Below, one piece after another: positions 2,550 to 45,685 of a DNA stretch of 64,000 nucleotides; positions within the stretch are counted from its first letter, which is position 1; every line of letters starts with the position of its first letter. The DNA comes from Candidatus Micrarchaeota archaeon. GTDB lineage: Archaea; Micrarchaeota; Micrarchaeia; Micrarchaeales; CABMGC01. Both the position numbers and the translations under genes were made by a program. The DNA lies in the NCBI GenBank assembly GCA_028867025.1, contig JAGWHC010000001.1, positions 118,972 through 182,971 of the forward strand. Reading direction: 5' to 3'. The notes beneath the pieces are model-generated. The model was given only the letters and a program-made list of their open reading frames with translations, made no database searches and was not told the DNA's origin.

Positions 2550-3751
2550 CCGAGCAACGGTTCAGTTCCGAACAGGCCGGAGAGCGAGTTGAGGCCCTTG
2601 CCTATACCGTTGATGAAGCCCACTGTTATCGCCATGTCCACGGCTATGAGCACTATCCCGAGGTAGAGGTACACAGCAATGCTCTCGCCCTGCTGCGCTG
2701 TCAGCGTGGGAGCGTTCCAGATGTAGCTCAGGATGTTCTGGGCTCCGGGGAACGCGGTTCCGGGATTAAGCCCGTACGCGCCCAGAAGATTGAAGCCCTG
2801 CGAGAGGTATGGGACGTTGTTTAGCACGAGCGACTGGCCCTGACTGGAGAAGAGCGTGCTGGGTGCCTGCGGCAATTGGTACGGAGTGAGCAGTACCTGA
2901 ACGCTTGACGGAAGGGGATAGCTGCACTGCACGTTCAGTGAGGATACGAGGCCGATGTTCATGCAGCTCGCCATGTAGACGTTGAAAGCGATCGTGAGCG
3001 GCAGAACGAAGTAGAAACCTATCGCGAGCGCAAGGAAGAGGTTGGACGTCTCCCTTATCTTCGGCCCTACGAAAGAGAGCGAGCGCATTATCAGAGCCAC
3101 GGGCACAACCACAGTGAGCGCGGCCGCCTGTATCATCGGAAGGATGAGGAAGAGTATGAAAAGCGGAGCAAACGAGACCATGAGCAGCGCTGCATAGACT
3201 CCTGTGACCGCTCCCGAATACGACAGAAGGATGAATTCTATGGCTTCGCCGGGCTCTACGCTTATGAGCCCGAGGAACTGCGACTGGGCGAAGAGCTCAG
3301 ACACGAATCCCTGGAACTGGTCCTCTATGATAAGTATGAGGTTTGACGCCACAACGTAGTTCGTGGAGACGGAGTAGAGATTGCTCGCCTCGCTTACACC
3401 GTTGGTGAACAGCAGGCTGCCCAGATACGCGTTGGAGAGCCTGAACAGGCTTGTATAGTCCTGCTGGCCCGCCACAGGCGAAAGCTGCGCGCCTACGTTG
3501 CACGATAAAGATGCAAGCGTGAAGATGGCGAACACTATTATGATGCTCATGAACGCCTCGAAGAGCTCGTAGCGGGTTATGCCCTTCAGCCTCTCGGCGC
3601 GGTCCGTCGGGAGAAGGTTGCTCACCGCGTAGGCAAGTCCTCCCACTGTCACGCTGAGCAGCACCACAAGCACGTTTATGCCGAGCCAGCCTGAGCTGGT
3701 GCCGAATAGCGTGGGAAAGTCGCAGCCTGCGATCAACAAGAGCGGTTGCAT
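2546..3751 (-). CDS. Polytopic membrane protein, paralog 2 (401 aa)
   Basis: TM1 is followed by TDRAERLKGITRYELFEAFMSIIIVF, then motif MRSLSFVGPKIRETSNLFLAL and a Gly-rich C-terminus GIGKGLNSLSGLFG. Lies 7 nt from the upstream gene and overlaps the downstream gene by 4 nt. Confidence 0.65.
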   Translation of the reverse strand: MQPLLLIAGCDFPTLFGTSSGWLGINVLVVLLSVTVGGLAYAVSNLLPTDRAERLKGITRYELFEAFMSIIIVFAIFTLASLSCNVGAQLSPVAGQQDYTSLFRLSNAYLGSLLFTNGVSEASNLYSVSTNYVVASNLILIIEDQFQGFVSELFAQSQFLGLISVEPGEAIEFILLSYSGAVTGVYAALLMVSFAPLFILFLILPMIQAAALTVVVPVALIMRSLSFVGPKIRETSNLFLALAIGFYFVLPLTIAFNVYMASCMNIGLVSSLNVQCSYPLPSSVQVLLTPYQLPQAPSTLFSSQGQSLVLNNVPYLSQGFNLLGAYGLNPGTAFPGAQNILSYIWNAPTLTAQQGESIAVYLYLGIVLIAVDMAITVGFINGIGKGLNSLSGLFGTEPLLG

Positions 3752-3758
3752 AAGAACA

Positions 3759-4979
3759 CTACACCAGTTTCAGCTTGCCTCCAAGCTGCAGCGTTATCGT
3801 TCCACCGAGCGTCCTCGCTATGCTGTCAGTGAGAGGATAGGCTATGGCTATGTCTGCTATGAAGAGCAGGAACTGGAGTATGACAACGAAAGTGTAGAAG
3901 AGCATGCCGTTCATTATGTTGAATATCGTGTACGGGTCGTAGCCCGTGATACCGTCATTGACTCCCTGATGGTATGCGGAATCGCTGTTTGCGGCGAAGA
4001 GAGTGCCGAAGAGCGTGCAGAGGAACGGGCTGGAGCCGCAGCTCACAGACGCGCTTGAGCTGTAGGTGCCGAAGGAGAACGCATCGGTCACGGGGCCGTT
4101 GAGGAGCGCGAGCGTGGCCGGGTATATGACCGCCATGCCTATGCCTATCGCGACCAGGGTCCCGCCCACGCCCCTGATGAACGGGAAGGAGCGCATGGCT
4201 ATGCCGACCGGGATGAGCACAGCCAGCCCCAGTATGACTATCATTGGCAGCAGAGCCTGCTGCGCTATCAGCAGCATCGATATCGGGAAGAGAAGGAAGG
4301 TGAACATGTCATTGAGCATCGACTCGTAGGAGCCGGTGGTTGGCGTGCTCTCCAGCATTGTGTTCACGTACGGCTGGTTGACGTACCCGAACTCGAGCCA
4401 GACGTCTGGAGGTATGGGTATTGGTATCGGCAGGAAGAATCCCACTTTGATTGAGTTGAGGCCGCCGAGCGAGTACGCCAGGCCTAACATGTAATCGAGA
4501 GCCGCTGGCAAGCCATAGATGGGACCGGTTGATGAACTACTTGAGACCGCCTGGTTGCCGATTACCGTATTCAGGTATCCGCATGCTGAAGAGACGAGCG
4601 ACGATATGCTGCTCTGGTACGACGTCCCTGTGGGCTGGAGCGTGAGGAGCGATGCGACATTGCCCATCAGCGTGAGCACGGCGAAGATGCCTACTATCAG
4701 CATCGCGGTCTTCGCTATCTCCAGGAACTCCTCGCTTATCCAGTTCCTTATTCCGCTCGAGGGTATTATCCTGCCTATGATGTAGCCTATCGCGACAACG
4801 TCTATGGATATGATGAGGCCGAGCAGCGAGAAGCCGATCAGGTTTGTGGGAAGCGTGAGCTGCGATGATGTCAGCGGATTGCTTGCGACGTTCAGACAAG
4901 ATATAGTCGCTTGAGCCCGCGCTTGCGAGGCGAAGATAAGCAAAGCAAGGAGGGTAAGTAGTGCCGCTCCGGATTTCAT
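3759..4979 (-). CDS. Polytopic membrane protein with signal peptide, paralog 3 (406 aa)
   Basis: Signal peptide MKSGAALLTLLALLIFASQARAQ. Has SGIRNWISEEFLEIAKTAMLIVGIF, motif AMRSFPFIRGVGGTLVAI and C-terminal tail TLGGTITLQLGGKLKLV. Confidence 0.65.
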   Translation of the reverse strand: MKSGAALLTLLALLIFASQARAQATISCLNVASNPLTSSQLTLPTNLIGFSLLGLIISIDVVAIGYIIGRIIPSSGIRNWISEEFLEIAKTAMLIVGIFAVLTLMGNVASLLTLQPTGTSYQSSISSLVSSACGYLNTVIGNQAVSSSSSTGPIYGLPAALDYMLGLAYSLGGLNSIKVGFFLPIPIPIPPDVWLEFGYVNQPYVNTMLESTPTTGSYESMLNDMFTFLLFPISMLLIAQQALLPMIVILGLAVLIPVGIAMRSFPFIRGVGGTLVAIGIGMAVIYPATLALLNGPVTDAFSFGTYSSSASVSCGSSPFLCTLFGTLFAANSDSAYHQGVNDGITGYDPYTIFNIMNGMLFYTFVVILQFLLFIADIAIAYPLTDSIARTLGGTITLQLGGKLKLV

Positions 4980-5028
4980 GTGCCTCGGTTATAATTGCAA
5001 TACTATATATAAATACAGCGACAGCGTT

Positions 5029-5760
5029 TCAGTGCCTGAGCATCGCGAATCTCTTCATGTACGCCTCGGCCTGGAAGATCACAAAGTAGGGGAGTATGAA
5101 TACGGAGTTGATGATAAGCATCAGGTAGCTGGAGATGAGTGTGCCTGTGGCGTGTATGAGGACGAAGTCCACCACGCCCACTACCAGCACGAGAATCGCT
5201 ACCCACATAAGGAAGTACTGCGGCTTGCTGGCGACCAGGTCCAGGCTGCGGTTGAGCGCCGAGCCCACGCCCTTGTTGTCTATCACTATGGCGGTCGGGG
5301 CGTAGAATATGGCCATGAAGAGGAAGAAGCCCACTATTGGAGTTAGAAACTCCTGCAATCCGAGGAAGTAGCCGAGTATGTTCACGAGGGTGAGTATGAA
5401 CGCGTAGGCCAGCAGTACCACGAAGACCCTGCCGGTGTACTTCTCTATCTCGCGGAGGACGCTAGCCGGCTGCCTGGTAAAGGTCCTCTCTGCCTTGACT
5501 ATCAGGCTTATCGCCACGAAGGCGAAGCTGAGGAAGAGGAGCGAGATGAACGCGGACATTATGATGACGGCAAGGCCCACAGGGTTCAGGTTGAGGAAGA
5601 TGCTTGCGCTCCTGAGGAATATGCCACCGCTCGAGATGTATGTGGGGAGCGGCGCAAGGAGAGGGATGACGAATGCTACTATGAAAGGTATTGAGAAAAG
5701 GAGCACGAGCCTTATGTTCTTCGCATAGGTCTCCCAGGAATCCTCGATAAGTGACGGCAT
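5029..5760 (-). CDS. Integral membrane protein (243 aa), first gene of the minus-strand membrane-protein operon
   Basis: Long ORF with about 6 hydrophobic helices. Same strand as paralog 3 and 49 nt upstream of it. No family recognised. Confidence 0.55.
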   Translation of the reverse strand: MPSLIEDSWETYAKNIRLVLLFSIPFIVAFVIPLLAPLPTYISSGGIFLRSASIFLNLNPVGLAVIIMSAFISLLFLSFAFVAISLIVKAERTFTRQPASVLREIEKYTGRVFVVLLAYAFILTLVNILGYFLGLQEFLTPIVGFFLFMAIFYAPTAIVIDNKGVGSALNRSLDLVASKPQYFLMWVAILVLVVGVVDFVLIHATGTLISSYLMLIINSVFILPYFVIFQAEAYMKRFAMLRH

Positions 5761-37315: not shown

Positions 37316-37748
37316 CTTGGCACCCCCTTTGTTGGACAGAAGTCAGACGGAATTACCTATGTTCAGAATAAGAATAAAAATGGCTAGGGTACGTTTGCTA
37401 TAAAAATGCGGTTACGTGCTCACAAAAGCAAAGAGTTTTGGATTTTTGATAGTCAAATGCTCGATTTTATGCGCTTCTACCTAGCAAAAATGAAGCGCGA
37501 AAAGAACGTTTTAAAATAAGGAGCGGCAATGTATCCGATTGAGCACGTATTTCCGCACTATTTGCCAAGGTTTAAATTTTTGCACGCGTCAATGACAGTT
37601 GGTGGGTACATGATCGCTAGAAAGAGGATAGTGCGAAGTATAGGAAAAACTGGCGGAAATAAAGAAATAAAGATAGGGAGCACGCCCCCTCCCGTTATGA
37701 AGTATAGTCACCCAGTCATTTTCTCTCAATTTTATCTCTTTCTTTTAG

Positions 37749-37827
37749 CCGATTGAAATCGAAAAGATAAGCGCCAGAAATCGATTGAAATGAAACGGAT
37801 AATCAGGCAAAATCGATTGAAATGAAC
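37749..37827. repeat. About 2.5 degenerate tandem copies of a 31-33 bp unit containing (A)ATCGATTGAAAT(C/G)
   Basis: GATTGAAAT occurs at 37751, 37784 and 37815. Units: gattgaaatcgaaaagataagcgccagaaatc / gattgaaatgaaacggataatcaggcaaaatc / gattgaaatgaaccc. Contains the AATCGATT palindrome. Lies 28 nt beyond the 3' end of tRNA-Pro. Confidence 0.6.
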
Positions 37828-37854
37828 CCTTTAATATATACCCCAAATTTTGAC

Positions 37855-37927
37855 CGGGGAGTTTGGGATTTGAACCCAAGTCACCACCGCCCGAGGGTGG
37901 TAGCCTACCAAGCTAGCAGAACTCCCC
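37855..37927 (-). tRNA. tRNA-Pro (CGG)
   Basis: Hand-folded. Acceptor GGGGAGT/ACTCCCC, discriminator G, anticodon stem CCACC/GGTGG, loop CUCGGGC, T arm TTGGG-TTCAAAT-CCCAA. The D stem has one mismatch. Confidence 0.85.
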
Positions 37928-37933
37928 TTTATC

Positions 37934-38430: not shown

Positions 38431-39651
38431 GTGGCCACTGTGTTCGAGGCAGAGCAGCTTTCGGTCAAGCGCACGCCGATAGCTTATCTGAACATGAGGA
38501 ACCCGCAGCTGCTCAAGTATTATTACAAGTTCAAGACACTGCAGATGATAGACAAAGAAGATATAAGCGGCTCCAGCCCGCCGGACATCTTCGTGGGCAG
38601 GTTCGGGTACCCCAATGTGTTCATAGGACCGCTGGTCCCGCCCATGCTCGGAGACACGAGCGAGATGGGCCTGCCGGAGACCTGGGTGAACAAGACCATA
38701 CCAGAGATAGTGGAGGCGAGATCCATGCTCGTGAGGGGCATGCAGAAGGAGAACATACACAACGTGGATGACAGCAGGACCGGCTCTATGCTCCAGGAGC
38801 TCGCGATAGCTGACAGGTACGCCAGCGTGGACATGCGGCTGGCGCGCAGGCCCAACCTCACGATCAAGTTCGATGAGAACAGTCAGCCCTTCGGCCCGAG
38901 CGCGCCGCTGAAGCTGATGAGCGTCGGGAACACGAAGACTAACAAGCAGATGGAGAAGGCGTATGCTGACACTGCCATGCCCGCGGGAACGGGCATGGTC
39001 GAGCTGTACGAGAAGGGCATAGAGGTGAGCAGGATACAGAAGATACTCGCGGCGGGAGGGCTGGGAATGAAGAACAACAGGAAGTTCGTGCCCACCAGGT
39101 GGTCCATCACGGCAGTGGACGACACGCTGTCCAAGTACAGGCTGAGCACGGTCAAGGAGACTGACAGCATAGAGCAGATAACAGTCTTCGAGGACGTGGC
39201 GCTGGATAACAGGTGGTTAGTCCTCCTATTTCCGGGAGCTTGGAGTTATGAGTTGGTAGAGGCGTGGTACCCTAATACTACCTGGAACCAGGACACGAAG
39301 AACATCGCCATATTCTCTAGCAGCGAGTTCTTCGCTGGCAGGAAGACCTACGCGGAGATAGGAGGGTGCTATTACGCCGCTCGCCTTGCAAGCTCGGAGT
39401 ACCTCAACAAGATAGGCAAGCAGGCACGAGTTGTGATACTTAGGGAGACGCATCCGGGCTACATAATGCCCGTGGGCGTGTGGAACGTCAGAGAGCACGT
39501 GAGAGCCGCGCTGAAGACGGAGCCGCTGCACTTCGACTCGCTACAGAGCACGCTGAACTTCATTGGAGTAAAGATGGCGATACCTGTAACTGAATGGATC
39601 AAGAATAGCGCTGTGCTGAGGGACATCATACATCAGCGCGTTTTGGCGTAG
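38431..39651 (+). CDS. Archaeal Nre-family protein (DUF650/DUF651; DNA-repair associated)
   Basis: SSPPDIFVGRFGYPNVFIGPLVPP matches the DUF650 N-terminal signature as I recall it. Length is about 400 aa. Confidence 0.55.
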   Translation: MATVFEAEQLSVKRTPIAYLNMRNPQLLKYYYKFKTLQMIDKEDISGSSPPDIFVGRFGYPNVFIGPLVPPMLGDTSEMGLPETWVNKTIPEIVEARSMLVRGMQKENIHNVDDSRTGSMLQELAIADRYASVDMRLARRPNLTIKFDENSQPFGPSAPLKLMSVGNTKTNKQMEKAYADTAMPAGTGMVELYEKGIEVSRIQKILAAGGLGMKNNRKFVPTRWSITAVDDTLSKYRLSTVKETDSIEQITVFEDVALDNRWLVLLFPGAWSYELVEAWYPNTTWNQDTKNIAIFSSSEFFAGRKTYAEIGGCYYAARLASSEYLNKIGKQARVVILRETHPGYIMPVGVWNVREHVRAALKTEPLHFDSLQSTLNFIGVKMAIPVTEWIKNSAVLRDIIHQRVLA

Positions 39652-39883
39652 CACACCTTCTCTGCCGTATATATAGAAAAATATAAGAGAAGAAAAGAAG
39701 ATTAAGGTTTATAACAAAGTTGGGGAAAAATTGGCTGATTGAGATAATACTAAAGTATATAAATTCATACCTACATAAAAGAATTACGCAAAATGCGTTT
39801 TGGCAACGCTATAAAAGAAGCCGTCTGTTTCTGGGTGATCATAAATTAGCGTTAGCTTTAAGCATTTTCGTTGTGTGATTAAT

Positions 39884-40738
39884 ATGATGAATGGTATTCC
39901 AACATTTGTTAAATGGGCTGGCGGCAAAAAACAGCTCTTGCCTCAGTTTATGCCTTTCTTCCCAAAGAAGATTGAAAGGTACTTCGAGCCGTTTGTTGGG
40001 GGTGGTGCTGTTGCTTTTTACATACTCAAACATTACAAACCAAACTATGTCTATCTTTCCGACAGTAATAATGAGCTGATTAATGCTTACAAGGTAATAC
40101 GAAATAATGTTAAGGATCTGATTAGGGGCTTGAAAGAGTACAAGAAAAAGCACTCCAAAGAATTCTATTACAAAGTTCGTGCTTTGAAACCTAATGAGCT
40201 TTCTGAATTAGAGTGTGCAGTAAGGTTCATTTATCTGAATAAGACCTGCTTTAATGGTCTTTATAGGGTCAATTCAAAAGGCGAATTTAACGTTCCTATC
40301 GGTAGCTACAAGAATCCTTCAATAGTTAACGAGAACGAACTTAAGGAAATATCTGGTTTACTACAAAACGCCAAATTCAGTACCAGCGATTTTGAGAACA
40401 TAGAGAACGAAATTCATAGGGGAGATTTTGTTTATTTCGATCCGCCTTACTATCCGCTATCGAAAACTTCAAGTTTTACCTCTTATACGAAAGAAGACTT
40501 TTTGGAGAAGGATCAGATAAGGTTAGCTGACTTATTCAAGCGATTAGACAAGAAAGGAGCTTATTTAATGCTCTCTAACAGTAGTGCAGAATTCATAGCG
40601 AAGCTATACAAGGAATACGAAAAGCACATCGCTCATGTACAAGCATCGAGAATGATAAACTGTGATGCCAAAGGTAGAGGTAAGATCAACGAAGTAGTAA
40701 TAACGAACTACCACACGGGTCTACAAGGAAAGCTTTAA
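39884..40738 (+). CDS. dam: DNA adenine methyltransferase, Dam/D12 class (N6-adenine)
   Basis: FVKWAGGKKQLLPQF...YFEPFVGGGAV (SAM binding) ...NGLYRVN...FVYFDPPY (DPPY catalytic motif). Confidence 0.85.
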   Translation: MMNGIPTFVKWAGGKKQLLPQFMPFFPKKIERYFEPFVGGGAVAFYILKHYKPNYVYLSDSNNELINAYKVIRNNVKDLIRGLKEYKKKHSKEFYYKVRALKPNELSELECAVRFIYLNKTCFNGLYRVNSKGEFNVPIGSYKNPSIVNENELKEISGLLQNAKFSTSDFENIENEIHRGDFVYFDPPYYPLSKTSSFTSYTKEDFLEKDQIRLADLFKRLDKKGAYLMLSNSSAEFIAKLYKEYEKHIAHVQASRMINCDAKGRGKINEVVITNYHTGLQGKL

Positions 40739-41305
40739 TCATTTCTTGCCGGCGTATCTTGATGCTCCTATAATTGAATAGATGTCGTCTTTCTCCGAGA
40801 GCTGTTGTAAGAGATTTCTAAACATATAGACTTCTCTGCCTGCTTTTGTATCGGTCTTTTCTTCTATGCTGAGCAATTCCATAATATAGGTAAGAAGCTC
40901 TATTGAGAATTGGCCATATTTGTTAAGTTCTTCAAACTCCTTCAAATCACTCTTACCAGCATATTTCAATTCGCATTTAAGTTGTTGTTCTTTGCTCTCA
41001 AACCCTTTAATCTCATCATAGATTTTCAAGAGATAGGCTACGTATTTTCGTGTAAGGGCCTTGTTCCCCTGCAATTTCATCAGAATTGCTACAGTCCAAA
41101 CAGTATGGCTTAATTGCCTGCCTTTGCTTCTTTCAGGAGTGAATTTATCTCTATATTTTATGACTATGTCTTTGTCGCTTTTCTTACCTTGATAAACATA
41201 AACGGTTTCTTGGTTTGGCAAGTCAAACTGTTTTATGAGTTCCAATGGCATACTTAGACTACTCACGAAAAAGATAAAAGAGCAGTATTCAACAAAGCCG
41301 ACCAA
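40739..41305 (-). CDS. Hypothetical protein convergent with and abutting dam (candidate cognate nuclease or other partner)
   Basis: 188-aa ORF (likely ATG at 41249-41251, MPLELIKQ...). Its stop abuts the dam stop. No motif securely recognised. Confidence 0.5.
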   Translation of the reverse strand: MVGFVEYCSFIFFVSSLSMPLELIKQFDLPNQETVYVYQGKKSDKDIVIKYRDKFTPERSKGRQLSHTVWTVAILMKLQGNKALTRKYVAYLLKIYDEIKGFESKEQQLKCELKYAGKSDLKEFEELNKYGQFSIELLTYIMELLSIEEKTDTKAGREVYMFRNLLQQLSEKDDIYSIIGASRYAGKK

Positions 41306-41436
41306 AACGGAATAGATATATAGTTTGGCTACCTACTATATTCGGGGGCGTTTATATCGGCTTAAATACTTTACTTTTGAAGTATTTGTGCGACCAGTAA
41401 ACCAATACGTATGTTACGAAAGTCGTACGTGCTCAA

Positions 41437-41742
41437 ATGGCAAAAATTGAAGAAAAAAAGATTGAAGAAAAGCGAGAACGAGTAGAACTCAAAGGAATAG
41501 ACCTGTACAGATTGCTTAATCCTAAATTCATCAAAAATTTGAAGAAAATTAGTTGGGATGCAGATCCCGTGGCCATAATGTTAATGGGCCACAAACGTTC
41601 AACCAAGAAGAAGGGAGAGCATTTTACATTATTGGTAATATCACACCATAGTAAAGAAAATTTGAGTAAGAAGATTATTTCTATAGAAGCAGATGATGTT
41701 GAATTTCTCGAAAAAATGAAAGATGCAATAAAGGAATCGTGA
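41437..41742 (+). CDS. Hypothetical protein (101 aa), gene 1 of a 3-gene cassette
   Basis: Lys/Glu-rich ORF, 4 nt upstream of the next gene. No family recognised. Confidence 0.5.
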   Translation: MAKIEEKKIEEKRERVELKGIDLYRLLNPKFIKNLKKISWDADPVAIMLMGHKRSTKKKGEHFTLLVISHHSKENLSKKIISIEADDVEFLEKMKDAIKES

Positions 41743-41746
41743 TTAA

Positions 41747-42292
41747 ATGACATGGAATAGTTTTGCCAGAGAGGAATACGGTGTCGAAAAAGCTGTAAGC
41801 GATCTCAGAGAAATACAATATCACGACAGCAAAATTTACCTTTCATTTCCAGTCTTTTCTACTTTCGGAAGGAGACAAACCCCGCATTTATGGAGGCCTT
41901 CTTTATTGAAGGATTATTATCAACTCATTTCGACCAGCCGGAGATCGTGGAAAATTCGTACCAAACTATTTAATGAATACATTAACACTGCTTTCATTAA
42001 AGAACTGAGGCTACCTAAAAATTCAAATGAGCTAATTACAGATCTTCTTGGAATCATGAGCAATTTCTTTAAGGGGGAGAGACTTAAGCACGAGATAACA
42101 ATTCAGCAAACCCACGATCCCGAAGATGATATAGCACAAATAAAAATGACTGTAGAGATTGATGATGATTTTAAACACATATACGAAAACCTCCGCCCAC
42201 AAATATATAAGTTGGCTGCAGATGCATTGCCCTCTGAATTAGTACAGAGTTTAGTAATCGATCTAAGAGCAATGAATCAGGGCTTTAGATGA
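41747..42292 (+). CDS. Hypothetical protein (181 aa), gene 2 of a 3-gene cassette
   Basis: ORF whose stop overlaps the next start (ATGA at 42289-42292). No family recognised, and no GSx10DxD NTase motif. Confidence 0.5.
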   Translation: MTWNSFAREEYGVEKAVSDLREIQYHDSKIYLSFPVFSTFGRRQTPHLWRPSLLKDYYQLISTSRRSWKIRTKLFNEYINTAFIKELRLPKNSNELITDLLGIMSNFFKGERLKHEITIQQTHDPEDDIAQIKMTVEIDDDFKHIYENLRPQIYKLAADALPSELVQSLVIDLRAMNQGFR

Positions 42293-42678
42293 ATCCCGAC
42301 GAATTTTTAAGACAGGCAAATAGGTTAGTTTCCCAAGAAGAAGTGGATTGCAGATCAGCGATTAGTAGAGCATACTATTCGTTATTTCATGAGGCTAAAA
42401 TACGTTTAGAATCACACCATAACAAAGAATGGCATCAACTGATAGAGAGTGATAAGAAACTTATCAAAGACACTCGAAACTTTATACCAAATTATCATTC
42501 TGTTGTAGTAAGACTCTTGGCTAAGTTGAATAAGAGTTATGGGTTTGATTACAACGGATTCAAAGAAAAAAGAACGCAAGCAGATTATTTCATAAGAGAT
42601 GCCTTTTTATCAGAAAGAGATTCGAAAATTATAATTGGAGAGATCGACAAGTTTATTGCAAAAATAAAGAACATATGA
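42289..42678 (+). CDS. HEPN-like (UPF0332/COG1895-like) helical protein, gene 3 of the cassette
   Basis: CRSAISRAYYSLFHEAKIRL... and KRTQADY resemble the HEPN/UPF0332 helix 1 and the R..ADY segment. 129 aa, predicted all-helical. Confidence 0.5.
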   Translation: MNPDEFLRQANRLVSQEEVDCRSAISRAYYSLFHEAKIRLESHHNKEWHQLIESDKKLIKDTRNFIPNYHSVVVRLLAKLNKSYGFDYNGFKEKRTQADYFIRDAFLSERDSKIIIGEIDKFIAKIKNI

Positions 42679-42772
42679 TATAACCTGTGAAAAAGTCATT
42701 AGTCTGTGAAAGAAGTCGTACTTTATTTACAAAGCCGCGCCAAACAGAAAAAATTTATTAAAGAAAGTGTAC

Positions 42773-43570
42773 CTAAATTACATATTTACCTGCATGCAAT
42801 TGCTTAGATTCTCCCGGCGTAGCTACGAATACATTTGTACCCTTTCTTATTAGCACCCTGCCTTCGAAATGGTAAACATCATCCTTATTCCAAGGAGGTA
42901 TGCGCACAATAAGTATTGAATTTCCTAGTACATTTTTCTGTGAAAGACTAACAACTAAAGATGGGGAAATAGTATTCTTTATAGAATTTTGCAAAGACTG
43001 ATCAAATTTCTGTCTGCTTTTATCAGTTCCTGATATTACTCCGTCATCTTCAACTCCATAGAAAATAAGTCCTCCAGACTTTGTATTTGCAAATGCGCAA
43101 ACTTCTTTAGCTAACTTATTGGTTTCGATTCCAGCGGCTTTAAACTCGTAGAGTTGATCTTCTCCATTTTTGCAAATGTCTAATATGTCTTTTTCTGAAG
43201 GCATAGAAATTGGAGTAAATACTCTGTTAGCGTGAGAGTGTTTAGCTCGTTTAATGTTGACTGTTTTTGGAAGTTTCTCAGGTTTGGAGAAATAGCCTAA
43301 AGATATGTGTTGTAGCAGGGGAACCTTTTCGTAAATGGTAGAGTCATTTTTCTTTATAGATTCTCCAATTGCGTTCTGTTTTGATTTTATAAGTTCCATA
43401 TCTCGCATTTTTTGCAAGTCATGAAGTGTTGAAGAAATTGGCTTGCCTGTTGCTTTCGCTATTTCTTTTCCAGTTCTGCGACCATTAACCAGCTTAAAAA
43501 CCTCTAAACGTTTAGGTGCTCCTACAAATAAAAGTCGCCCACGAGAGATGAGCTCTTGAAGTTCTGCCAT
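42773..43570 (-). CDS. wHTH plus AlbA_2 (Schlafen-type, former AAA_4) domain protein
   Basis: The N-terminus, FKLVNGRRTGKEIAKATGKPISSTLHDLQKMRDMELI, is a wHTH. The C-terminus, EDQLYEFKAA...LAKEVCAFANTKSGGLIFYGVEDDGVISG, is the AlbA_2 signature. Confidence 0.65.
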   Translation of the reverse strand: MAELQELISRGRLLFVGAPKRLEVFKLVNGRRTGKEIAKATGKPISSTLHDLQKMRDMELIKSKQNAIGESIKKNDSTIYEKVPLLQHISLGYFSKPEKLPKTVNIKRAKHSHANRVFTPISMPSEKDILDICKNGEDQLYEFKAAGIETNKLAKEVCAFANTKSGGLIFYGVEDDGVISGTDKSRQKFDQSLQNSIKNTISPSLVVSLSQKNVLGNSILIVRIPPWNKDDVYHFEGRVLIRKGTNVFVATPGESKQLHAGKYVI

Positions 43571-43603
43571 CTAATCTACGTGCCTATAAAGTTTTGAAAG
43601 GGA

Positions 43604-43780
43604 TCAGGATTTTTTTAGCAACTTCCTTACAGGGAACAGTCTACTGAAATCCGCTTGATCCATTCCTAGGAGTTCTGATAATGCGCTAGCAGACACTCCG
43701 TTCTTCAGTAGCTGTAGGACGAGAAGCTTCTTTACAGATTGTAACTCTTTAAGGACAGGATCACTTTGAATTTTGACCAC
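43604..43780 (-). CDS. Small HTH protein (58 aa), member E of a five-gene tandem array
   Basis: Sub-threshold ORF, hand-translated: MVKIQSDPVLKELQSVKKLLVLQLLKNGVSASALSELLGMDQADFSRLFPVRKLLKKS. GTG start. Overlaps the upstream gene by 20 nt. Confidence 0.45.
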   Translation of the reverse strand: MVKIQSDPVLKELQSVKKLLVLQLLKNGVSASALSELLGMDQADFSRLFPVRKLLKKS

Positions 43781-43991
43781 CTTTTTTCCGTTTTTCAGCG
43801 TTACGATGTCGTATGGCGGAACCAGTTTTACCTAATAGTGATCCGATCTCTTCAGATTTCATGCCTGCTTTTTTATAAATTTTTATTTTGATTGGCTCAT
43901 CTTTGCTTTCGGCAGCAATTATAGCAGATAATTTACTTATCTTGGCACTGATTTCTTTTAGGAGTTCTATTTCACTTTGGGGTTTGCCCAT
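43761..43991 (-). CDS. Small HTH protein (76 aa), member D of the tandem array
   Basis: ...ISKLSAIIAAESKD...KKAGMKSEEIGSLLGKTGSAIRHRN, with a basic tail. Confidence 0.55.
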   Translation of the reverse strand: MGKPQSEIELLKEISAKISKLSAIIAAESKDEPIKIKIYKKAGMKSEEIGSLLGKTGSAIRHRNAEKRKKGGQNSK

Positions 43992-43997
43992 CTTTCG

Positions 43998-44168
43998 TCA
44001 CCCTTTCTCTTTCTTATTCTGCGGATAAAGTTTTGTTAGTGTTTTATCAGAGCAGCCGATAATTTTTGCAACCTGCTTGACCCCACTTCCGCCCTTTAAA
44101 AGCACGCCCGCTAGCAGATACTCGATCGTCTCCAAGTGCTCTTCGGTTTTCTTGATTTTTTTAGGCAT
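43998..44168 (-). CDS. Small HTH protein (56 aa), member C of the tandem array
   Basis: Sub-threshold ORF, hand-translated: MPKKIKKTEEHLETIEYLLAGVLLKGGSGVKQVAKIIGCSDKTLTKLYPQNKKEKG. Confidence 0.45.
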   Translation of the reverse strand: MPKKIKKTEEHLETIEYLLAGVLLKGGSGVKQVAKIIGCSDKTLTKLYPQNKKEKG

Positions 44169-44172
44169 CTAA

Positions 44173-44379
44173 TCACGACTTCTTTGACTTTCTTATGCTA
44201 TGTAAGGTGACTCTTATGAGGTTAGGCGTTTTCCCGGTTATCTCCGCGATTTCTGAAGGTTGAAGGCCAACATTTGAGAGCAGCCTTACTTGTTCCCTAA
44301 GAGTCTTACCTGATACAACACTTGCTGCCAAGAGCTTTGTCATTTTCTCTAATTGCCCAAACAGTTTTTTCTCATCCAT
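44173..44379 (-). CDS. Small HTH protein (68 aa), member B of the tandem array
   Basis: ...MTKLLAASVVSGKTLREQVRLLSNVGLQPSEIAEITGKTPNLIRVTLHSIRK. Confidence 0.55.
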   Translation of the reverse strand: MDEKKLFGQLEKMTKLLAASVVSGKTLREQVRLLSNVGLQPSEIAEITGKTPNLIRVTLHSIRKSKKS

Positions 44380-44381
44380 TT

Positions 44382-44615
44382 TTATACATCTCGCTTCTTT
44401 AGTAAGGCCTTTTCTTTAGATGCGTGACCTTTTGTTATATTCAATATTTCTGCTATGTCTCTGTCTTCTGTGACCCCTCTGCTTACCAAGTATGCTACTT
44501 TCTCTTTAATTGAAAGTTTTTTACCTAGATTTTCATTTACATCTATCAGTAGACTAGCTATGAGACTTAGCTTTCTTGATGCTCTATCTGAAGGATCTGT
44601 CTCCCCCATATTCAT
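44382..44615 (-). CDS. Small HTH protein (77 aa), member A of the tandem array
   Basis: ...LSLIASLLIDV...IKEKVAYLVSRGVTEDRDIAEILNITKGHASKEK. Lies 2 nt upstream of member B. Confidence 0.55.
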   Translation of the reverse strand: MNMGETDPSDRASRKLSLIASLLIDVNENLGKKLSIKEKVAYLVSRGVTEDRDIAEILNITKGHASKEKALLKKRDV

Positions 44616-44818
44616 TAATTAGAAAGTAAACTATTTAAGCATTGTGTGGGTGGGTTAAGAGGTATATAACTACTAAATTAATGAATGGGTCTAAAGAGAA
44701 GACTGACAACCTACGAAAAACGTGTAAGCTCCATTCATAGTCTGATTCTCCCTTAAGGGCTTTGAACTTTTGCTCTTCTTTCCATAGCAAACAAAAACTT
44801 TCCCTTCCCTATATCTCC

Positions 44819-45685
44819 ATGCTCCCAGACTGGCTTGCAATCAAGCCTGCCAACACAGAGAGATACGGCGAGATAAAGCAGACCATAGACGTAATGGGCT
44901 TGCACACCGTCTGTGTTGAGGCTCATTGTCCTAATATTACCGAATGCTGGAGCGCAGGTACAGCTACGTTCATGATACTCGGCGGCACCTGCACCAGGGG
45001 CTGCAGGTTCTGCGCTGTGCAGAAACGCGCCATCGGCGAGGGTATAGACATGCTGGAACCCACGAAGCTCGCCGCGGTTATCAAGAAGTGGGGCCTCGAC
45101 TACGTCGTACTCACCTCAGTATGCAGGGACGACCTGCCTGATCAGGGCTCCGGCCACTTCGCAGCCTGCGTCAGGGAGATCAAGAAAGCATGCGCGAACA
45201 CGCTTGTGGAGGTACTGATACCTGATTTCCGCGGTGATGTATCGTGCCTGCAGCGGATCGTCGACGCGAAGCCTGACGTGATAGGGCACAACATCGAGAC
45301 GGTAGAGAGGCTTAATCCTGTTATCAGGGACAGGAGAGCTAATTATTCGCAGTCCTTGAAGGTTCTGCAGACCTCCAAGCAGCTTGATAGGCGCATATAC
45401 ACCAAGTCGGCCATGATGCTTGGCGTGGGCGAGACAGAGGAGGAGATAATCAAGGCGCTGCAGGACCTGCGCGCCAACGGCGTGGACTTCGTTGCCATCG
45501 GCCAGTACCTAAGGCCCTCGCAGCACCACTACGAGGTGAAGGAGTACGTAATGCCTGAGAAGTTTGAGCGCCTCAGGAAGAAGGCCCTCGAGCTGGGCTT
45601 CCTCTACGTGGCCGCCGGTCCGTTCGTCAGGAGCTCGTACAAGGCGGGAGAGTACTTCGTCAAGAGGCTCATACAGAACAGGTGA
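44819..45685 (+). CDS. lipA: Lipoyl synthase
   Basis: CVEAHCPNITECW (auxiliary cluster) and CTRGCRFCAV (radical-SAM CxxxCxxC). ATG at 44819. Confidence 0.9.
   Translation: MLPDWLAIKPANTERYGEIKQTIDVMGLHTVCVEAHCPNITECWSAGTATFMILGGTCTRGCRFCAVQKRAIGEGIDMLEPTKLAAVIKKWGLDYVVLTSVCRDDLPDQGSGHFAACVREIKKACANTLVEVLIPDFRGDVSCLQRIVDAKPDVIGHNIETVERLNPVIRDRRANYSQSLKVLQTSKQLDRRIYTKSAMMLGVGETEEEIIKALQDLRANGVDFVAIGQYLRPSQHHYEVKEYVMPEKFERLRKKALELGFLYVAAGPFVRSSYKAGEYFVKRLIQNR

Follow-up and report, generated by a model that had tools for sequence, protein, structure and literature searches.

How does an archaeon with a genome of 0.81 Mb come to hold, between two conserved core genes, a block of DNA lower in G+C than any other of its size in the assembly, and what does this block encode? 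We examined a 64,000-nucleotide stretch (hereafter the window) of contig JAGWHC010000001.1 (positions 118,972 to 182,971, forward strand; assembly GCA_028867025.1) from a Candidatus Micrarchaeota archaeon, here genome G000, in which an AT-rich segment at window positions 39652-44760 separates nre from lipA. Probably this segment is a horizontally acquired defense island at a genus-specific, hypervariable nre-lipA hotspot, made up of three autonomous conflict modules: a Dam methylase with a convergent partner, a three-gene cassette ending in a HEPN protein, and an array of small helix-turn-helix (HTH) genes followed by a Schlafen gene. The kind of feature, a defense island at a hotspot, is already known; its cargo is largely undescribed.

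A low-G+C island at a variable junction

Along the window, G+C content runs at 0.54-0.60 up to the nre stop codon (39651), lies at 0.31-0.42 over about 39600-44800, and returns to at least 0.56 from lipA (about 44800). The island has a mean of 0.367 against a genome mean of 0.530 (standard deviation 0.024; z = -6.75), the reference being 781 overlapping 5.1-kb windows over the whole 814,742-bp assembly. Codon usage follows the same pattern, with G+C at third codon positions of 0.26-0.51 in island genes versus 0.62-0.78 in nre, lipA, lplA and the Nudix gene. The assembly is divided into 40 contigs, and the island lies inside one of 658 kb.

Among the seven genus members, G000 included, that have nre and lipA on one contig, the gap between the two genes measures 58 bp in G008, 0.75 kb in G004, 2.3 kb in G001 (rearranged), 5.1 kb in G000, 6.0 kb in G010, 8.6 kb in G002 and 10.8 kb in G005. 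The three largest sibling inserts, those of G010, G002 and G005, are also low in G+C (0.31-0.47). None of the G000 island proteins finds a match in the sibling inserts by tblastn, and the island is absent from every congener. The G002 insert encodes a 954-aa Eco57I/MmeI-type restriction-modification (R-M) enzyme and a DUF3800 protein; that of G010 carries Dcm, a BpuJI-type endonuclease and a second Dcm, along with a RiboL-PSP HEPN with GmrSD_N; and that of G005 holds a HerA-like ATPase, HATPase_c_3, a MazG-like protein, HxlR and an HNH endonuclease. The junction thus combines conserved core flanks, cargo that varies among relatives and an empty site, and the sibling inserts make its cargo defense-rich, the recognizable members in G000 being Dam, HEPN and Schlafen. 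Because the junction in congeners is either empty or occupied by unrelated cargo, with defense genes in the three largest sibling inserts, we regard the segment as an accessory island at a hypervariable defense hotspot. Elsewhere in the family, each genus in which both genes could be located has nre and lipA on separate contigs, and the hotspot is therefore genus-specific.

The empty site also fixes the edges. In G008 the nre stop is followed by about 60 nt and then by the lipA upstream motif CTTTSCAYAGCAAACAAAAA, which is common to G000, G002 and G005 as well, and from this comparison the boundaries in G000 are set at 39652 and about 44745-44770. At the left end, a leader of 186 nt (39653-39838) shares 89.8% identity with the corresponding end of the G010 insert (L022 1314-1497). 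This value equals the identity of the flanking genes between the two genomes, and past the leader the cargo differs, with Dam in G000 and Dcm in G010. Since the leader matches the flanks and the cargo then differs, the leader seems to have been inherited and the cargo on its right side exchanged. Family profile searches match none of the 11 island proteins to an integrase or transposase family, and the direct or inverted repeats that flank the island as possible att sites are just short chance matches. The island accordingly lacks the integrase or recombinase and the tRNA-derived or direct att repeats of an integrase-mobilized genomic island. Integration linked to a tRNA was considered and rejected, the sole nearby tRNA (tRNA-Pro, 37855-37927) being 1.7 kb away with two core genes between. 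With no mobility genes present, homologous recombination through the conserved flanks, rather than a site-specific integrase, would be the most economical mechanism and probably drives the turnover of cargo. Inside the island no Rfam family, CRISPR or tandem-repeat array was found, and its genes are single-copy, with no further copies elsewhere in the genome.

Several other observations concern the same junction. The left ends of the G002 and G005 inserts have a common motif that differs from the G000/G010 leader. Within the low-G+C insert of G005 (L023, G005:C7), a stretch at about 3000-5100 is host-like in composition (0.56-0.62) and encodes a 665-aa HerA/FtsK-like ATPase; because of this stretch, the cargo of the hotspot appears mosaic in origin. 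A 209-aa gene without a Pfam match, conserved between G004 (L026 1086-1715) and G001 (L024 3384-4013), fills the gap in both. In the rearranged region of G001 (L024, G001:C40), the interval between lipA and nre holds a carbohydrate-kinase-like gene, whose place in G000 is downstream of lipA, and two pairs of small genes flanking lipA (L024 1826-2325 and 167-798) resemble toxin-antitoxin modules when their sequences are judged by eye.

The island and its borders contain the following features (window coordinates):

38431-39651, plus strand: nre, core gene bordering the hotspot on the left, present in 39 of 41 relatives; its stop codon is the left edge of the G+C drop
39652-39838, no strand: AT-rich non-coding left leader, common to the G010 island; no Rfam match
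39884-40738, plus strand: Dam-family (D12-class) N6-adenine DNA methyltransferase; open reading frame (ORF) open from GTG 39875
40739-41251, minus strand: u170, 170-aa convergent partner of Dam and candidate restriction subunit; abuts Dam tail to tail
41437-41742, plus strand: c101, gene A of the three-gene cassette (hypervariable position); ends 4 nt before gene B
41747-42292, plus strand: c181, gene B, conserved partner of the HEPN gene and directly upstream of it
42289-42678, plus strand: hepn129, gene C, AF0298/UPF0332-type HEPN protein; ATGA overlap with gene B
42773-43570, minus strand: winged HTH (wHTH)-Schlafen (AlbA_2) protein, predicted nuclease; last gene of the minus-strand operon
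43604-43780, minus strand: mini-HTH gene h58; homologues of at most 73% identity directly upstream of Schlafen homologues in 17 metagenomic loci
43761-43991, minus strand: mini-HTH gene h76; tblastn matches in 7 Schlafen loci; part of the five-member alignment
43998-44168, minus strand: mini-HTH gene h56; PF02796 HTH_7 at E 1.6e-4; homologues of at most 71% identity upstream of Schlafen homologues
44173-44379, minus strand: mini-HTH gene h68; tblastn matches in 41 of 80 Schlafen loci; weak Sigma70_r4_2 match
44382-44615, minus strand: mini-HTH gene h77, first gene of the operon; tblastn matches in 9 Schlafen loci
44616-44818, no strand: divergent intergenic region; the island ends within it (about 44745-44770), and it also holds the motif upstream of lipA
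44819-45685, plus strand: lipA, right core flank; start MLPDWL at ATG 44819, as in congener orthologues

The lipA ORF is open from TTG 44762, and the extra stretch (44762-44818) is probably an overcall that runs into the conserved motif upstream of the gene. Outside the island, a second short AT-rich spacer (G+C about 0.40, 37400-37930) lies beside tRNA-Pro, upstream of the Nudix gene.

These results bear on an initial annotation of the window, made without database searches. It had described an accessory, defense-like island, with composition dropping sharply after the nre stop and recovering at the lipA promoter and with no integrase, transposase, att or flanking repeats; the G+C profile, the absence from congeners, the defense-rich sibling cargo and the lack of any island gene from a housekeeping family all agree with this. 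The comparison with relatives that it proposed does not bear out the core-genome alternative, G008 having an empty site of 58 bp. Its gene list also holds up under profile searches: a Dam methylase with an abutting convergent gene (now 170 aa and part of a conserved pair), a three-gene cassette whose HEPN-like protein the PDB profile matches confirm and refine to the AF0298 type, a wHTH-AlbA_2 (Schlafen-type) protein and five tandem small HTH genes.

A Dam methylase with a convergent partner of unmatched fold

The first module pairs a clear methylase with a protein of no recognized family. Dam matches PF02086 (E 2.8e-71) and TIGR00571 (E 3.5e-93; 312 bits against a cutoff of 115), and a DPPY motif is seen in its translation, which would supply the methyltransferase of a type II R-M system. 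Against PADLOC it matches the oMTase and MTase_II models at about 1e-100, the best being the "orphan methyltransferase" model. The homologues of u170 begin at MPLEL, placing its true start at 170 aa. There are 16 of them, at 33-78% identity and none with a Pfam domain. Wherever enough flanking sequence is available, in three metagenomic lineages and in four further genera of the order, they stand tail to tail with a Dam of 60-71% identity. u170 occurs in 6 of 151 genomes of the order, and the Dam-u170 pair is often beside a DDE transposase. Copies of u170 broken by frameshift or stop codons are present in G094 (L053/L055, G094:C3 3952-4382) and G093 (L054, G093:C62). The Dam of G094 aligns free of stops over residues 49-283, an alignment that leaves out the N-terminal 48 residues and thus does not speak for the whole gene.

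u170 is found only with Dam, as expected of an R gene, whereas the methylase can occur without it. The Dam orthologues of G139 and G037 (72-73% identity) have no u170 detectable by BLAST and are overlapped by a convergent gene of 206 aa (L184 1404-2024) and 180 aa (L185 787-1329), respectively. These two genes are mutual homologues (E 3e-6), and their resemblance to u170 is weak and confined to the level of motifs (7 bits); they may be alternative or highly diverged partners of Dam.

An AlphaFold2 model of u170 built on the family alignment (mean predicted local distance difference test score, pLDDT, 83.7; predicted template modeling score 0.82) has three N-terminal strands followed by seven helices. 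Foldseek finds no match for this fold in the PDB (best E 0.79) or BFVD (best E 0.39); the sequence matches no Pfam, NCBIfam, PADLOC or PHROG family and, by profile-sequence search, no PDB entry. A known nuclease and a SeqA- or MutH-like protein were considered for u170 and dropped, having neither sequence nor fold support. CTAG is depleted across the genus (observed/expected 0.55-0.61), with or without Dam-u170.

Because of the strict linkage to Dam, the sporadic distribution, the decayed u170 copies and the movement of the pair as a unit, we lean toward reading Dam and u170 as an R-M pair with a toxic, fast-evolving R gene. The Dam-class methylase would protect host DNA, and u170 would be the restriction subunit, on a fold without a solved relative.

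A HEPN cassette with a constant and a variable partner

The second module consists of three translationally coupled plus-strand genes (41437-42678) encoding c101, c181 and hepn129 (101, 181 and 129 aa), here genes A, B and C. Although hepn129 reaches the Pfam HEPN model at just E 0.05, its family profile finds 9xbd (1.7e-4) and 2hsb (AF0298; 5.6e-4) in the PDB, with the SRAYYxLFHE and R-x3-D-Y motifs aligned. It also matches the phage protein family phrog_5176 (2.8e-14). Residues R22, R27, H34, E35, H70, R95, D99 and Y100 are invariant in the family. AF0298-like HEPN-T proteins lack the histidine of the motif and carry another conserved histidine upstream of it, which may make up an alternative RNase site (PMC3710099). 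The hepn129 family has this arrangement, keeping the arginine of the Rx4-6H motif (R95), with its histidine replaced and H70 upstream.

Gene B lies directly upstream of the HEPN gene in nine further loci, namely three metagenomes (L035, L036 and L037; soil and other), four Bathyarchaeia, one Nitrosopumilus and G017, the only other positive genome among 401 of the phylum. More distant viral HEPN proteins are without it. c181 has 20 relatives besides the query among 1.84 billion representative proteins. Its model has a variable N-terminus of low confidence and a C-terminal domain of about 100 aa (mean pLDDT above 90 in the residue blocks of 81-170) with the order alpha-beta-beta-alpha-alpha-beta. 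Its identification as an MNT or any other known fold was rejected, the best Foldseek hits (E 0.02) being to generic alpha/beta domains (OsmC, EscJ, KH-like).

A gene A precedes gene B in all 8 of the 8 loci that reach far enough upstream (L035 is cut off inside B), and it varies in kind. The proteins at this position in other cassettes measure 91-218 aa, and at least four unrelated types can be told apart: those of Bathyarchaeia (about 210 aa), those of L036 and L037 (about 200 aa), that of G017 (91 aa) and c101. c101 has no significant family match in the profile libraries, and a profile search testing its homology to the other gene A proteins was negative. An MNT antitoxin was not found either: neither c101 nor c181 matches a nucleotidyltransferase family, and the c181 fold search yields no nucleotidyltransferase. 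Because no MNT is present, the cassette is not a type VII HEPN-MNT system.

The cassettes of Bathyarchaeia adjoin a phage portal gene, a Rep gene or a Cdc6 gene, and in one of them (L040/L168) the contig is identical over the cassette to an IMG/VR viral contig. Another metagenomic cassette has a KAP NTPase as neighbor. In L040/L168, a predicted archaeal provirus, the cassette comes immediately after the phage portal gene, placed as a moron would be within a structural module.

We tentatively read the cassette, giving this close to an even chance, as a mobile tripartite module of the toxin-antitoxin or abortive-infection type. The HEPN protein would be an RNase effector using R95 and the alternative histidine H70, the product of gene B its constant neutralizer or adaptor, and the hypervariable gene A a swappable regulator or trigger-sensing part. 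A literature search on UPF0332 together with HEPN found no paper.

An array of mini-HTH genes upstream of a Schlafen gene

The third module is a run of six minus-strand genes, with gaps of 2-6 nt among the mini-HTH genes apart from one 20-nt overlap and with 33 nt before the Schlafen gene. Five of them (43604-44615) encode tandem mini-HTH proteins of 56-77 aa. The sixth encodes a 265-aa protein with an AlbA_2 domain (PF04326, E 1.8e-23) and a weak N-terminal wHTH (ArsR 1.1e-3, Csa3 2.7e-4). Across 63 members of the family, conservation reaches at least 90% at the motif GEDQLYEFK (E146-x4-E151-x-K153) and at D175. The Ex4(E/D)xK site is required for tRNA cleavage and phage defense in bacterial Schlafen proteins (PMC13056530, PMC13462974), and AlbA_2 together with this motif is what defines a pSlfn domain (PMC13056530), which the protein thus contains. 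At least 95 full-length metagenomic relatives share 44-69% identity with it, and relatives are essentially absent from the 150 other genomes of the order. No relative of the operon was found among 2.9 million viral contigs.

Homologues of all five mini-HTH proteins occur in Schlafen loci by tblastn, at no more than 73% identity and mostly upstream of the Schlafen gene. For h76 this holds in 6 of 7 loci, position in the seventh (L128) not having been compared. An iterated hidden Markov model finds two to five same-strand tandem mini-HTH ORFs in 46 of the 50 loci with at least 1.2 kb of upstream DNA. In the 150 genomes of the order, a search for the array gives only weak HTH-core matches in unrelated proteins. 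A specific paralogy between the mini-HTH proteins and the N-terminal wHTH of the Schlafen protein was rejected, the two having only a generic HTH core in common (hhalign probability 31%) and the BLAST single-linkage cluster being insufficient. The five mini-HTH genes and the AlbA_2 gene together form a single conserved operon. The HTH-fused Schlafen protein would be a tRNA- or RNA-cutting effector with an intact Ex4ExK site, and the five mini-HTH proteins, if co-transcribed with it, would repress, tether or gate this nuclease.

At least one Schlafen-locus host looks bacterial, its flanks reading as rpsM-rpsK-rpsD-rpoA-rplQ when the first ORF residues are judged by eye. Neighbors of the Schlafen loci appear, also by eye from ORF starts, to include methylases and HsdM-, DUF3800-, recombinase- and TIR-like genes.

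Three independent modules, and the alternatives

Dam, u170, gene B and HEPN proteins find no match in the 80 Schlafen loci, and the genomic contexts of Dam-u170 and B-HEPN differ from one another. Since the modules are not linked to each other across loci, the island is a stack of three independent cassettes, each rare in the lineage and conserved elsewhere. The initial annotation had named this island the most likely place for an undescribed anti-virus or anti-plasmid system; the findings support that interpretation, except that they point to three independent, separately mobile modules in place of one system. Composition, presence or absence in relatives, hotspot behavior, family assignments, gene linkage and conserved motifs are observed directly, and from them we infer the biochemical activities and the defense role itself.

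Several findings count against parts of this account. PADLOC recognizes only the methylase among the island proteins. u170 has no recognizable endonuclease fold, family or nuclease motif, and gene linkage is the sole ground of the R-M assignment. Avoidance of GATC was rejected as the mark of a GATC restriction enzyme, the ratio of observed to expected sites being 0.68 in G000 (whole genome), 0.65 in G002 (G002:C3 1-200000) and 0.61 in G004 (G004:C1 1-200000), so that two congeners without the module are equally depleted. In module 2, hepn129 has neither the canonical Rx4-6H histidine nor an MNT partner, and the frequent location of the cassette on proviruses or plasmid-like elements means that it may serve the element, by addiction, rather than the host. 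In module 3, the model behind the mini-HTH counts was built iteratively and may admit unrelated HTH ORFs, although direct BLAST supports the main trend, and the mini-HTH proteins have no more than a generic HTH core in common with the Schlafen N-terminus.

For the first module, these points lend weight to a different account, in which Dam is an orphan methylase with a regulatory or repair-linked function and u170 a non-nuclease accessory, for instance a reader of methylation state or a regulator, with no restriction system at all. u170 indeed lacks any PD-(D/E)XK, HNH, GIY-YIG or PLD signature as well as a fold match, the best PADLOC model for the methylase is that of orphan enzymes, and GATC depletion is not specific to genomes carrying u170. 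We nevertheless think this account rather unlikely, in view of the tail-to-tail linkage kept across 39-78% divergence in u170, the occurrence in so few genomes of the order, the pseudogenes of u170 in two genomes (in G094 beside a Dam most of which aligns without stops) and the movement of the pair as a unit into different neighborhoods, a combination typical of R-M pairs whose R gene is toxic.

For the island as a whole, one could argue that it is a decayed integrated virus or plasmid which has lost its mobility genes, the modules being its addiction or anti-competitor genes and never host defense. Uniformly low G+C would fit such an origin, as would the relatives of module 2 beside phage portal, Rep and Cdc6 genes and inside an IMG/VR viral contig, the match of HEPN to phrog_5176 and the DDE transposases often found near Dam-u170 pairs. 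Yet genes for structural proteins, replication or integration are missing from the island, as are att-like repeats, the Schlafen operon has no relative in the viral contigs searched, and the quite different cargo that four congeners carry at this site is a better fit to a recombination hotspot than to a single element. This origin, which we consider improbable, also overlaps with that of a defense island, since defense genes commonly arrive on mobile elements. Far less probable still is an assembly or binning artifact, in which a foreign fragment was joined into the contig. A metagenome-style assembly in 40 contigs and a composition so sharply unlike the rest of the genome might raise that suspicion, but the block lies within a 658-kb contig with both flanks syntenic to congeners, low-G+C inserts occupy exactly the same junction in three independently assembled congeners, and the first 186 nt of the insert are common to G010 at the identity of the flanking genes.

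Relation to known systems

Variable defense hotspots between conserved core genes are known in other organisms. The nre-lipA junction resembles defense islands (Makarova et al. 2011, PMC3194920) and such hotspots in its conserved flanks, in the unrelated, defense-rich cargo of foreign composition in each relative, in the empty site of one relative and in the stacking of several systems side by side. It differs from the usual hotspots in belonging to an archaeon of DPANN-size genome (0.8 Mb), in having no integrase or transposase, in being confined to one genus and in carrying cargo most of which PADLOC does not recognize.

DpnII/MboI-type GATC systems are type II R-M systems with a Dam-family (D12-class) methylase. 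The first module is like them in its methylase, in the small, tightly linked gene (convergent here), in its mobile and sporadic occurrence and in a partner that sometimes decays; unlike theirs, its partner u170 matches no restriction-enzyme family (no Pfam DpnII) and no solved fold.

The HEPN protein of the second module shares with AF0298-type HEPN-T (PDB 2hsb; PMC3710099) a small four-helix HEPN fold, the arginine of Rx4-6H, the replaced histidine and the second conserved histidine upstream. As a compact mobile operon the cassette also resembles type VII HEPN-MNT systems (PMC3710099, PMC7641770), from which it differs in containing no MNT; its constant partner is a protein of 180-240 aa with a new alpha/beta C-terminal domain, and a hypervariable third gene lies upstream.

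HTH-fused pSlfn proteins are a published class (8.8% of 5,930 proteins; PMC13056530), and bacterial Schlafen proteins with this motif are experimentally demonstrated phage-defense tRNases (PMC13056530; Cash, PMC13462974). Module 3 agrees with pSlfn and Cash in its AlbA_2/Schlafen domain, intact Ex4ExK motif, fused HTH and defense neighborhoods. It is unlike pSlfn in that the HTH is N-terminal in a short, 265-aa protein preceded by two to five tandem mini-HTH genes (46 of 50 loci). The word "operon" does not occur in PMC13056530, whose passages mentioning HTH cover domain fusions only.

Implications

The three compact modules recur in distant microbes, and we found no description of them. It is a distinct possibility, though one on which we would not yet count, that at least one of them is a truly new conflict system: u170 could be a new structural class of restriction endonuclease traveling with Dam; A-B-HEPN could be a tripartite system in which a HEPN RNase working independently of MNT receives its trigger or specificity from an exchangeable, hypervariable first gene; or the mini-HTH array could be a modular, multi-protein controller of Schlafen common to archaea, bacteria of the candidate phyla radiation and other bacteria.

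Little is known about how DPANN archaea, which are host-dependent and small in genome, resist viruses and plasmids. The nre-lipA junction indicates that a genome of just 0.8 Mb still reserves a dedicated, rapidly changing site for defense cargo without an integrase. The cargo comprises three compact, clonable candidate systems of two to six genes, all of them conserved in phyla that are far apart: a restriction-enzyme fold, possibly new, paired with Dam; a HEPN effector with two other proteins replacing MNT; and a Schlafen nuclease accompanied by an array of mini DNA-binding proteins. Schlafen and HEPN nucleases also act in eukaryotic immunity, and new modes of controlling them would thus be of general interest.

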